From the IMG/VR virus record IMGVR_UViG_3300028597_000007: a DNA stretch of 64,000 nt; one strand, 5' to 3'. The translations under genes and the position numbers were made by a program. Positions 19,475-59,479 of the stretch are shown in pieces. Numbering within the stretch: position 1 is the stretch's first letter; each line of letters opens with the position of its first letter. The notes under the pieces are model-generated. The model did no database searches. It was not told the DNA's origin and worked only from the letters and a program-made list of their open reading frames with translations. The DNA comes from a virus.

Positions 19475-19522
19475 GCATGGGGCTGGCCTTCGGGCCAGCC
19501 TTTATGCCCCATCTTTTTTTTT
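19475..19522 (+). terminator. phuZ terminator
   Basis: GGCTGGCC-TTCG-GGCCAGCC-TTTATGC and a long T tract. Confidence 0.9.
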
Positions 19523-19552
19523 TGTTAAACTAAACAAGGGGATGTAATGTAT

Positions 19553-19654
19553 TGAGGTCTCTGCAGATACGGTCAGGTGTCTGCCCCGGTTGTCACGGTC
19601 CGGGTTGATTTCAGGCATGACTCCATCGCCTCCCTTCGGGGAGGTTTTTTTTTT
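19553..19654 (+). ncRNA. candidate small structured RNA (three-way junction) with its own terminator
   Basis: Three helices (19553-59/19607-13, 19563-70/19577-84, 19585-89/19600-04) between two terminators; no ORF. Confidence 0.5.
19629..19654 (+). terminator. intrinsic terminator
   Basis: CCTCCC-TTCG-GGGAGG followed by T10. Confidence 0.9.
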
Positions 19655-37200: not shown

Positions 37201-37253
37201 ATGAGGGCGGCCTTCGGGTCGCCCTCATTTTTATGACGTATCTTTTTTTTTTG
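37201..37253 (+). terminator. intrinsic terminator
   Basis: ATGAGGGCGGCC-TTCG-GGTCGCCCTCAT and T tracts. Confidence 0.85.
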
Positions 37254-53375: not shown

Positions 53376-53435
53376 CGGCATAGCTGCCCCTCCCCGCAAG
53401 GGGAGGGGCAGTGAGCCTATGCTCTTTTTTTTTTG
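53375..53435. terminator. bidirectional terminator with GGCATA/TATGC flanks
   Basis: CTGCCCCTCCCC-GCAA-GGGGAGGGGCAG and a T tract. Confidence 0.9.
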
Positions 53436-57067: not shown

Positions 57068-58696
57068 ATGCAAGGTTCCGACATCGAAAGCGAAGCACCA
57101 GCGCCGGATGATTCCGATCTGGTGCATGAGGCCGAGGCTGTTGCGCAGGTAGAACTGCCGGCCGAAGAACGTGCCCCGGCCGAAGAAAAGCCGCGCACTG
57201 AAATGCACGACGACGAAGACTCCGACCTGCCCAATGAAGACCAAGCGTCTTCCGAAGCCGGTAAGCCGTTCTTCGAAGCCGACCACTGGCAGAGCGACAA
57301 GACCTACCAGAAGGAGCCGATGGTTAAAGACCGTCCGGCTAACTTCGAACCCCCGTTCACCTTGATTGTCCCCTCGCTGAACACCAAAGACGCTACCCGC
57401 GTTGCTGAAGCGCTGGAACCAGTCATCAAGCATGTCTCTCCACAGACTGCTGAATGGCTCCGCCGCATTGTGACCAGCCAGTCGATGATCGTGGCCAACG
57501 GTCAGTTCGAAGCTTCTCTGCAACGTGATGGCTCGCTCTGGCTGCAAGCACCTGAACACGACGGCATCAAGCTGGTCGCTCAGGTGCCCGCCATTGCACA
57601 GCCTGCACCTGGCACTATCCTGACCGGCCAAGATGCTGAGATCCACATGGCTCAGCAAACCAAGACCTATGCCCGGATGATGTTCCCCCTGTACCACACC
57701 GGTATCTGGTTGAACGTCGCAGTGCCCCACGGCTCCGAGCTGCACGTCCTGGAAGAAGCACTGGCTGCTGCCAAGTACGACCTGGGCTACATGACCAAGG
57801 GCCTGGTTTACTCCAATACCTCAGTCATGCAGAACATCGCGCTGGTCAACTTCGTGTTGGACCATGTGATCAACTCTTCGGCGGAACACACCACCACTGC
57901 GTTCCTGAAGAAGGTGATTCGCATCACCGACATTAACTTGATCGCTGCGAACATGTCGTCGGCTATCTATCCGTCGGGCTTCCCGCTGGAGCGCCCGTGC
58001 TCTGCTGAGCCGATGAAGTGCCACAACGTTACCAAGGGCCTGCTGCGCCTGTCCAAGATCATCTGGACCGACGACAACGGCCTGTCGGCTTACCAGAAGA
58101 AGTTCATGGCTACTCGTCTGGCTGGCCAGAAGAAAACCGAGGCGGACTTCAAGAAGTATCAGGAGGAATTCCCCGGTGTTACTCAACGTGTTGTCGAAAT
58201 TGCTCCTGGCATCAGCGTTCTGCTCATGCCTCCAACTATCGAACAGTACGAGCAGTCCGGCTATTCCTGGATCGAGTCGATTGAGCGTGGGGCGAACGCC
58301 ATGCTCAACACCCCAACTGGTCCTGAACTGAACGCTCACATGACTGCGCAGTATCAACTGCAGTCGATGCGCCAGTACGCCCACTGGGTAGACGCGATCA
58401 TTTACCCGAACGACGTGTCGGTACGTGACCGCGAGACCATCAACAATCTGCTTGCCAAGCAGTCGGATAACACCGACCTGGTTGACAAGTTCATTGCTGC
58501 GGTCAAGCAGTTCATCGAAGACTGTGTTGTCTCGGTCGTCGGCATTAACAACTACAGCTGCCCATCCTGTGGTAAGTCCCAGACTGCCGAAGGTTCGCGC
58601 AATCCGAAGTTGATCCCCCTCGACCCGGTCCACACTTTTTTCACCCTCAGCGGCCTGAAGACTCAAACTACTCTCTCGAAAAACTCGGAGCACTAG
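57068..58696 (+). CDS. putative baseplate-hub/tail assembly chaperone (T4 gp26-like) with a C-terminal CxxC; upstream part of a candidate frameshift fusion
   Basis: Acidic N-tail; CPSCG near the end; IPLDPVHTFF overlaps the slippery site; function inferred. Confidence 0.6.
   Translation: MQGSDIESEAPAPDDSDLVHEAEAVAQVELPAEERAPAEEKPRTEMHDDEDSDLPNEDQASSEAGKPFFEADHWQSDKTYQKEPMVKDRPANFEPPFTLIVPSLNTKDATRVAEALEPVIKHVSPQTAEWLRRIVTSQSMIVANGQFEASLQRDGSLWLQAPEHDGIKLVAQVPAIAQPAPGTILTGQDAEIHMAQQTKTYARMMFPLYHTGIWLNVAVPHGSELHVLEEALAAAKYDLGYMTKGLVYSNTSVMQNIALVNFVLDHVINSSAEHTTTAFLKKVIRITDINLIAANMSSAIYPSGFPLERPCSAEPMKCHNVTKGLLRLSKIIWTDDNGLSAYQKKFMATRLAGQKKTEADFKKYQEEFPGVTQRVVEIAPGISVLLMPPTIEQYEQSGYSWIESIERGANAMLNTPTGPELNAHMTAQYQLQSMRQYAHWVDAIIYPNDVSVRDRETINNLLAKQSDNTDLVDKFIAAVKQFIEDCVVSVVGINNYSCPSCGKSQTAEGSRNPKLIPLDPVHTFFTLSGLKTQTTLSKNSEH
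58636..58642 (+). other. candidate -1 programmed ribosomal frameshift heptamer T TTT TTC
   Basis: X XXY YYZ in the correct phase of the 57068 ORF; the -1 frame is open from 58576 to 59178. Confidence 0.6.
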
Positions 58697-59178
58697 AGCC
58701 TTCACAAATCCAAACCGAAGCCGGATTATCAGTTAACACTAAGCGCCACGTTAACGATCCGAACTTCGGTTTGGACACCGACCTTTATGACACAGAGCTG
58801 GCGCGCATCCGCGAGGTGATCCATGAGACAGGTGATAAGCCTGACTATGTGGACTCCGAGATGATGATGCGCACGGTGTACGAGTCTGCGTTCGGTATAC
58901 ACAACCACTACGGGCCTAATCAACATCCTTTCGCTTTGGTCGCGGCTCATCCAAAGGAAGATTTTGTTCCGTACTCCAGTCGGTTCCGTGACTATGCGGC
59001 TTACATCAATGCGCGGGTCTACGAGACTACCGGGATTCCAATGGACAAGTTCTTTGATCGGCCTCGTGCCGAGATTGAAATGATCATGGGTCTTGTGCGA
59101 GTCAGCAACCGCAAGCAGGCACACAGCGCTGAAGAGATTGCCGCGGCAGCGCGAGCAGCTCAGCAGGGCAAGAAGTAA
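58636..59178 (+). CDS. downstream -1-frame ORF (T4 gp51/lambda gpT-like assembly chaperone tail), probably reached by frameshift
   Basis: No RBS before TTG 58771; coding-like sequence extends upstream to the slippery site; MDKFFDRPRAEIEMIM C-terminal motif. Confidence 0.65.
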   Translation, partial: FFHPQRPEDSNYSLEKLGALEPSQIQTEAGLSVNTKRHVNDPNFGLDTDLYDTELARIREVIHETGDKPDYVDSEMMMRTVYESAFGIHNHYGPNQHPFALVAAHPKEDFVPYSSRFRDYAAYINARVYETTGIPMDKFFDRPRAEIEMIMGLVRVSNRKQAHSAEEIAAAARAAQQGKK

Positions 59179-59191
59179 TGGGGAGTCTACA

Positions 59192-59479
59192 ATGATCGAC
59201 AACCGCATGATGCGTCACGCTATCATGGGACATGAGGAGGGGGATGATCCACGCCCCTCCCGCTTTGTGGTGGATAACCACACACGTCGCCTGATCCCTT
59301 ACCGTGACACGTACACGGAGAGCCAGGTCTGTACCAAGTTCGGTATCACCAAGGGCCAGCTGCGTAAAGCAGTGAAGTCTGGAGGCTTCCCGAAGCCTAC
59401 CAAGTACGGTCCAGGCAACAAGCCGTGGTGGGCTGACACCATCATCGACAAAGTGTCCCGTGTTGACGAAGACGAGTGA
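59192..59479 (+). CDS. AlpA/excisionase-like winged-helix DNA-binding protein
   Basis: YTESQVCTKFGITKGQLRKAVKSGGFPKP...W; RBS GGGAG. Confidence 0.75.
   Translation: MIDNRMMRHAIMGHEEGDDPRPSRFVVDNHTRRLIPYRDTYTESQVCTKFGITKGQLRKAVKSGGFPKPTKYGPGNKPWWADTIIDKVSRVDEDE

Follow-up and report, generated by a model that had tools for sequence, protein, structure and literature searches.

The stretch of DNA analysed here, referred to below as the window, comprises 64,000 nucleotides (nt) of the IMG/VR virus record IMGVR_UViG_3300028597_000007, an uncultured metagenomic contig with an estimated completeness of 51%, and contains a gene for a protein of 542 amino acids (aa) whose 3' end overlaps a long open reading frame (ORF) shifted by -1. 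In our reading, the two frames would be joined by a programmed -1 ribosomal frameshift at a run of T residues near the end of the gene; the features of the locus are collected in Table 1. The 542-aa protein aligns with phrog_4585 over residues 12-536 of 542 (E 2e-98), and a tblastn search with it yields matches in 221 phage records, all of which belong to phiKZ-like jumbo phages carrying the gene in a syntenic position. The record notes equate this upstream gene with phiKZ gp77, 201phi2-1 gp136, PhiPA3 gp074, and EL gp47. As judged from the full-length profile match and the conserved synteny, the 542-aa protein is a member of the phiKZ gp77 family, which represents core gene cg18 of the Chimalliviridae; phiKZ gp077 is listed under this number as a 'hypothetical protein' in the supplement on nucleus-forming phages by Prichard et al. 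(2023). The translated -1 frame matches phrog_12109 (E 3e-24), with an alignment that starts ahead of any start codon. Matches in PHROGs are limited to phrog_4585 and phrog_8054 for the body of the protein and to phrog_12109 and phrog_7580 for the extension, all of them of unknown function. Searched as DNA, the locus gave no match in the phage collection; its relatives are recognisable only at the protein level.

Table 1. Positions of the features at the gp77-like locus within the window
Feature	Position	Strand	Remarks
Zero-frame gene, 542 aa (short form)	57068-58696	+	stop codon TAG at 58694-58696
Slippery heptamer T TTT TTC, in phase (U_UUU_UUC)	58636-58642	+	codons ACT TTT TTC, Thr523-Phe524-Phe525
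Continuation in the -1 frame, 178 codons plus TAA	58642-59178	+	homologue of 201phi2-1 gp135 and PhiPA3 gp073 (phrog_12109)
Overlap with both frames open	58643-58696	+	begins inside the 34-nt block 58631-58664
TCAG/CTGA hairpin, 4 bp, loop CGGC	58647-58650 paired with 58655-58658	+	present, weak
Conserved -1-frame motif HVNDPNFG (family pattern H-x4/5-FG)	58747-58770	+	past the zero-frame stop, ahead of any canonical start
TTG, first ATG/GTG/TTG codon of the -1 frame after the run, 43 codons on	58771-58773	+	sole candidate for an independent start

Codon 522 of the gene begins at position 58631, and the in-frame sequence from 58631 to 58645 reads CAC ACT TTT TTC ACC, which places the heptamer in the phase X_XXY_YYZ that defines such slip sites (PMC4066793) and leaves 17 sense codons between it and the stop codon. 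The -1 frame is free of stop codons from 58576 to the TAA at 59176-59178, and a product shifted at the heptamer would consist of 525 plus 178 residues, or 703 aa, with the junction ...DPVHTFF/HPQRPEDSNY... (the slash marking the change of frame) and the predicted tryptic junction peptide LIPLDPVHTFFHPQRPEDSNYSLEK in this phage; the corresponding junction in the phiKZ-like OMKO1 record is ...STFF/YFGGLEVK.... The preliminary description of the locus, made from the DNA letters, had put forward exactly these elements, namely an in-phase T TTT TTC near the end of the 542-aa ORF, a -1 frame without stop codons between 58576 and 59178, and a fusion of about 700 aa upon slippage, and the codon reading, the translation, and the computed length bear them out.

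The layout was compared across 104 loci, consisting of 18 named phage records, six metagenomic close relatives whose proteins are 50-88% identical to that of the window, and 80 IMG/VR loci, 70 of which are distinct and a few of which appear to duplicate named phages. The named records come from phages of Pseudomonas, Ralstonia, Burkholderia, Xanthomonas, Erwinia, Serratia, Salmonella, Klebsiella, and Vibrio, plus a Halocynthia phage. Protein identity to the window protein drops to about 14-20% across this set, and a run of T residues nevertheless occupies one and the same Phe-Phe column close to the C-terminus in 104 of 104 loci, with a length of T6 to T9 in 102 of them and of T5 in the remaining two (L058 and L068). 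Beyond the run, no locus has a stop in the -1 frame for 149-181 codons, and the frame leads into a homologue of the downstream domain. Of the 24 named and close loci that could be read cleanly (23 plus the window), 22 show NNT TTT TTN at the slip site and the other two, from phages FLC9 and PhiPA3, show NNG TTT TTT; every locus keeps at least a U_UUN tetramer. The T-run and the -1 overlap, whose conservation in orthologues had been proposed as a check on the idea, are thus a constant feature of the family. The two T5 loci read ACC GTT TTT ACG (L058, positions 2780-2800) and GAG TTT TTC ATG (L068, positions 2700-2720), and in both of them the -1 frame remains open and the downstream domain is present; slippage there would need the U_UUN tetramer.

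A single run of six T residues is not a rare event in this DNA: the window contains about ten separate runs of T6 or longer on its two strands. Counted as overlapping matches, this amounts to 29 where 19 would be expected, a number that 5 of 100 shuffled versions of the window also reach. The run at the gp77-like locus stands above chance because it is conserved in the relatives, while a lone T6 would be unremarkable. Four T10 runs, much longer than the one at the gp77-like locus, also occur on the + strand of the window (19514-19523, 19645-19654, 37243-37252, and 53425-53434) and may be terminator tails or intergenic signals.

The conservation of the run exceeds what codon usage predicts. With Phe-Phe taken as fixed, and with the expectation calculated from each gene's own TTT/TTC usage and its third-position T content outside the site, a run of T6 or longer would be expected in 14.5 of 79 loci, but is observed in 77. 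The window gene encodes Phe by TTC 15 times out of 16, and its sole TTT is the one in the heptamer. The run is retained even in Erwinia phage pEa_SNUABM_54, where the second residue of the pair is Leu (TTG). Among the seven closest sequences (50-88% protein identity), a block of 34 nt reaching from CAC ACT TTT TTC into the early overlap is identical, the codons just 5' of it differ synonymously, and T6 followed by C is found in seven of seven; among residues that are themselves identical, the proportion of unchanged codons reaches its maximum of 0.87 at the site, compared with a gene mean of 0.56. The 104 loci share ancestry and their counts do not represent independent events; at such distances, however, synonymous sites have long reached saturation. 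As far as such comparisons can tell, the signal and the frame layout are conserved beyond the requirements of the protein sequence.

Any reading of the locus as two separate genes has to provide the downstream frame with a start codon of its own, either the TTG at 58771, a non-canonical codon, or reinitiation after the TAG ending at 58696, with the run being kept for its Phe-Phe residues. Such an arrangement would agree with the public annotation, since 18 of 18 annotated records show two genes and mark neither a join nor a slippage, and in a few relatives a start codon does follow the run closely (8 codons on in 201phi2-1, 2 in L073, and 7 in L091). However, several of the annotated starts cut into conserved sequence, and the TTG of the window is preceded by no Shine-Dalgarno motif (no GGAG, GAGG, or AGGA within 15 nt upstream), in line with the earlier claim that the -1 frame lacks a start supported by a ribosome-binding site. 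The conserved motif H-x4/5-FG lies immediately before this codon, with residues F42 and G43 of the extension being nearly invariant in an alignment of 61 extensions, so that initiation at the TTG would lose it. In other relatives, the first start-type codon follows the run only after 60 codons (L020), 73 codons (L022), or 78-151 codons (some IMG/VR loci), and in many of them the motif and up to at least 100 conserved codons precede the first ATG, GTG, or TTG. The -1 frame is therefore under coding constraint upstream of any start codon. Moreover, many loci have a -1-frame stop codon only 4-6 codons upstream of the run, which means that the frame is entered only at or after the run. The window has no start codon near the zero-frame stop, which argues against termination-reinitiation, and the candidate non-canonical start codons vary among the seven close relatives instead of being conserved. 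Neither the excess of runs over the codon-usage expectation nor the open -1 frame between the run and the zero-frame stop, which extends over up to 44 codons and is present in every locus, would be explained by two independent proteins, and we regard this arrangement as very unlikely. The missing start codon is also reflected in the records themselves, where gene callers overlook or shorten the downstream gene and give it lengths of 74-182 aa. In L020 (3638-3871, - strand) and L022 (3623-3847, - strand), automatic calling reports a spurious ORF on the opposite strand across the extension, since the real frame offers no start codon.

Searches for a natural in-frame fusion bear on the same question. 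No protein longer than 280 aa was found to contain the extension domain, which is weak evidence, and an exhaustive phmmer search returned 1311 homologous clusters, the best 150 of which measure 477-645 aa and end within a few residues past the FF motif; no form long enough to hold the extension occurs among these best 150 clusters of the gp77 family. The absence of a fused form from the protein searches is what two separate proteins would predict, but a two-frame layout that has seemingly never been resolved into one ORF also fits selection for making both forms.

It may further be asked whether the extension is functional at all, or whether the -1 frame represents a decaying or untranslated remnant, or the run an artefact of assembly or sequencing. 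The window comes from an incomplete metagenomic contig, and homopolymer errors do happen at this site, as suggested by Xanthomonas phage RTH11, whose run is off by one T. The same layout is found, however, in about 100 independently sequenced genomes, the extensions of 61 of 61 relatives match phrog_12109, a confident helical fold is predicted for the domain, and no stop codon interrupts the 149-181 codons in any locus, which makes an untranslated remnant or an artefact extremely improbable. The RTH11 record (OQ790161.1) shows T7 at positions 2420-2426 of the extracted locus (L003), where the family layout requires T8, and its annotated coding sequence of 627 aa departs from the conserved frame at the run and goes on in the third frame; this may reflect either a homopolymer sequencing error or real heterogeneity in run length.

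From these observations it appears highly probable that a recoding event fuses the gp77-like protein to the downstream domain, and a programmed -1 ribosomal frameshift at U_UUU_UUC is its probable basis. The central claim of the preliminary description, a -1 shift at the T-run that joins both frames, is strongly supported by the run, its phase, and the open frame in about 100 relatives. According to this model, most ribosomes would pass the heptamer and terminate at the TAG ending at 58696, releasing the 542-aa short form, and a fraction would slip back by one base with tRNA-Phe on the UUU/UUC codons. The slipped ribosomes would decode Phe524-Phe525, continue with CAC CCU..., and proceed through 178 codons to the TAA ending at 59178. 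In the resulting long form of about 703 aa, the first 525 residues of the gp77-like protein would be joined to the helical domain related to gp135/gp073 by a disordered stretch of some 20-30 residues. The sequences themselves show the signal, the open frame, their conservation, and the coding constraint; from these we infer that slippage occurs and is ribosomal, and its efficiency is likewise an inference.

The same fusion of about 703 aa would also be encoded if an RNA polymerase, in this case a phage-encoded multisubunit enzyme, inserted an extra U at the run in a fraction of the mRNA. These phages use unusual polymerases of their own, the run length ranges from T5 to T9 among the relatives, and the T7 of RTH11 in place of T8 suggests that it may be unstable or hard to sequence. 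UUUUUUU is avoided in all frames of Escherichia coli genes, possibly on account of slippage (PMC4066793). On the other hand, selection for slippage of the polymerase would prefer runs longer than the T5-T6 present in many lineages, and the clade of the window has fixed the minimal T6 plus C in all seven relatives. Appreciable slippage by bacterial RNA polymerases typically takes runs of about 8-9 residues or longer. The in-phase form X_XXY_YYZ observed in 22 of 24 loci would matter to ribosomes only, yet it is to be kept in mind that conservation of Phe-Phe also fixes the phase. Ribosomal slippage is favoured because T6 plus C is fixed in this clade, several lineages have only T5-T6, and the canonical in-phase form is dominant; transcriptional slippage is accordingly rated as unlikely.

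Several points weigh against a programmed ribosomal frameshift at this site. Ribosomal and transcriptional slippage are not separable by sequence alone, and a trans-frame protein is unreported in the literature searched. In four loci (FLC9, PhiPA3, L058, and L068), the two Phe codons are not preceded by a T, which would make P-site re-pairing imperfect and leave slippage dependent on U_UUN. The search for stimulators, which covered RNA folds without pseudoknots, gave no indication of a downstream structure in the window, where the 80 nt after the site fold with a z-score of -0.32 relative to shuffled sequences, nor in 79 loci, where the mean z-score after the site is -0.43 compared with -0.38 for a control segment within the gene (p 0.98). 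RNAalifold applied to the seven relatives returned only invariant or trivial pairs and no covarying helix, and no Shine-Dalgarno-like sequence was found upstream of the slip site in the window. The lack of a stimulatory structure is also what would be expected for two separate proteins. The short TCAG/CTGA hairpin noted in the preliminary description does exist, but a stimulator role for it is unsupported, as it has only 4 bp and the folding z-scores of the window and of the family do not differ from their controls. Stimulatory elements accompany many programmed -1 sites but not all of them, and in phage lambda, the -1 site of G/GT functions without an obvious stimulatory RNA structure.

The gp77-like locus shares its architecture with the tail-chaperone frameshifts, as represented by lambda gpG/gpGT as well as by P2 E/E+E', Mu, and HK97 (PMC5009743): a -1 shift at the 3' end yields a short and a C-terminally extended form with a common N-terminus, and the signal is conserved across highly divergent phages while the proteins diverge. 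It differs from lambda G/GT in the size of the body (525 aa versus about 140), in the slip motif (U_UUU_UUY versus G_GGA_AAG), in the family and fold of the protein, and in its position, which is not between the genes for the tail tube and the tape measure. Its neighbours are a virion-type RNA polymerase beta subunit gene, gp79-like and gp78-like genes, a small ORF, and a DNA polymerase gene, in an order that also occurs in phiKZ-like records, and the gp77-like locus therefore lies outside any tail-morphogenesis module; the observation that it is not placed beside a tape-measure gene had already been made in the preliminary description and is correct. No match to a tail assembly chaperone was obtained for the gp77-like protein in Pfam or PHROGs, which together with the polymerase genes nearby rules out a tail assembly chaperone of the lambda G/GT type. 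Of the 'G/GT-style' designation, the short and extended forms and the 3' shift hold, whereas the chaperone family does not. The small ORF next to the extension is a 95-aa gene on the + strand (59192-59479) with a strong GGGGAG ribosome-binding site before its ATG at 59192 and a weak match to the DNA-binding phrog_6401 (E 6e-4).

Two other recoding systems resemble the gp77-like site in single aspects. The shift in E. coli dnaX (A_AAA_AAG) is likewise of the bacterial -1 type on a homopolymeric heptamer and produces a fixed ratio of two forms, tau and gamma. It shortens the product and makes use of an upstream Shine-Dalgarno-like element and a downstream stem-loop, and both of these elements were not found at the gp77-like site. 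The T7 gene 10B product carries an extension of about 53 aa. As in T7 gene 10A/10B (G_GUU_UUC; PMC5009743), tRNA-Phe would slip at UUU/UUC close to the end of the gene and give rise to an extended minority product, and the T7 site tolerates the imperfect P-site re-pairing that the G_UUU_UUU relatives would have to tolerate as well. The short T7 extension has no conserved domain and needs a distant 3' element, in contrast to the gp77 extension, which is a conserved domain of 150-180 aa that is otherwise annotated as a separate gene.

An AlphaFold2 model of the body, based on 68 sequences, has a predicted local distance difference test (pLDDT) value of 86.4 and a predicted template modelling score of 0.83. 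Residues 1-55 (57068-57232) are strongly acidic, predicted to be disordered (pLDDT <50), and variable in length among relatives, and some homologues of the gp77 family carry N-terminal extensions of 100-200 residues. Cys311, Cys318, Cys498, and Cys501 (C-x6-C ... C-x2-C, encoded at 57998-58021 and 58559-58570) are invariant in the 68 homologues, which suggests a structural zinc site, and the second pair forms a CPxCG motif that is shared with T4 gp26 and gp51. For the extension, the model (pLDDT 81.2) predicts a disordered linker of about 20 residues followed by a helical domain with a long C-terminal helix; this domain matches nothing beyond its own orthologues.

A Foldseek search of BFVD with the body retrieves its own family first and then many models of T4-like proteins annotated as 'baseplate hub assembly protein', chaperone, or hub subunit (E 2e-5 to 1e-2, template modelling score by target 0.45-0.60, probability about 1), with predicted models on both sides of the comparison. 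T4 gp26 and gp51 both belong to Pfam family PF12322 (T4_baseplate), which is the most frequent Pfam family among the 68 relatives, albeit in only four of them and with a best E of 0.0021, below the cut-off. The Pfam scan of the 542-aa protein gave no match at E<=10, and the PF12322 model found none in the phage's own record, a search that is uninformative because the control genomes gave none either. Profile comparison by hhalign of the gp77 family gave 28% against T4 gp26, in the CPxCG region only, and 42% (E 2.7e-4) against an alignment of 23 gp51/gp26 sequences, where the match is confined to 14 columns around CPxCG, the aligned segments spanning 14-28 columns. A sequence profile search of the PDB found nothing, a Foldseek search of the PDB found nothing at E<=0.001, and a wide VIA-align search against solved structures matched helical hairpins only, at Z<=5.9 with the body and at Z<=5.4 with the extension. 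The preliminary hint at T4 gp26/gp51 is thus met by predicted fold matches in BFVD, but the profile comparisons stay below significance, and the predicted gp77-like fold resembles these baseplate-hub assembly proteins at the fold level only. The T4 proteins are otherwise dissimilar: the gp77 proteins are twice as long, there is no significant sequence match, gp26 and gp51 are the products of two paralogous genes without a frameshift, and the C-terminal part of gp51 is unrelated to the extension. An assignment of the short form to gp26 and of the long form to gp51, with the extension as its C-terminal domain, is not supported by sequence, as hhalign gave 0.3% for the extension against gp51/gp26. 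T4 gene 26 also yields two products, 26 and 26' (L025, 2803-3429, - strand), in that case by internal initiation.

A tail-hub assembly role of the two forms, with their ratio set by the shift, may be considered as a lead, not a finding. In its most extended version, which is speculative and on balance doubtful, the site would be an ancient family-wide device that supplies two forms of a gp26/gp51-like hub-assembly factor in a fixed proportion from one recoded gene, in place of the two paralogues of T4, and the helical domain of the long form would add a sub-stoichiometric function such as oligomerisation or docking. A need for a sub-stoichiometric long form would explain why no lineage has fused or separated the frames. 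In the 201phi2-1 record, gp135 and gp136 carry no 'identified by mass spectrometry' note, as opposed to gp138, which has one, and the Goslar homologue of cg18 (gp81/gp081) is not named in the preprint on the structure of the Goslar virion, in which 28 different proteins are modelled; this suggests that neither form is an abundant virion protein, and neither is known to be part of the virion.

No paper tying a gp77-like gene or the Chimalliviridae to frameshifting was found in the literature searched, an absence that is not proof, and the preliminary claim that the arrangement is undescribed in this family agrees with these searches. No frameshift is mentioned for the gp77-like gene in the core-genome paper, the 2025 Annual Review on nucleus-forming phages, the Goslar structure preprint, the PCH45 transposon-sequencing preprint, PRFect, or the 2016 recoding review (PMC5009743), and 'gp77' in those papers designates other proteins. 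The gene family and the breadth of its conservation are new, and the mechanism would be a standard -1 frameshift; because the latter is textbook knowledge, what is gained is a new gene family and a corrected annotation rather than a new principle.

The gp77 (cg18) gene is core to all nucleus-forming jumbo phages, an intensively studied group, and has no assigned function. If the proposed frameshift is true, every public genome of the family mis-annotates the locus, with arbitrary starts and downstream products of 74-182 aa, and the proteome lists on which screens for interaction, localisation, and essentiality rely lack a protein of about 700 aa. The gp77 genes would then also provide a deep and family-wide example of -1 frameshifting in genes other than those of tail chaperones, and the frameshift would offer a handle on the function of the gene by means of phages producing only the short or only the long form.

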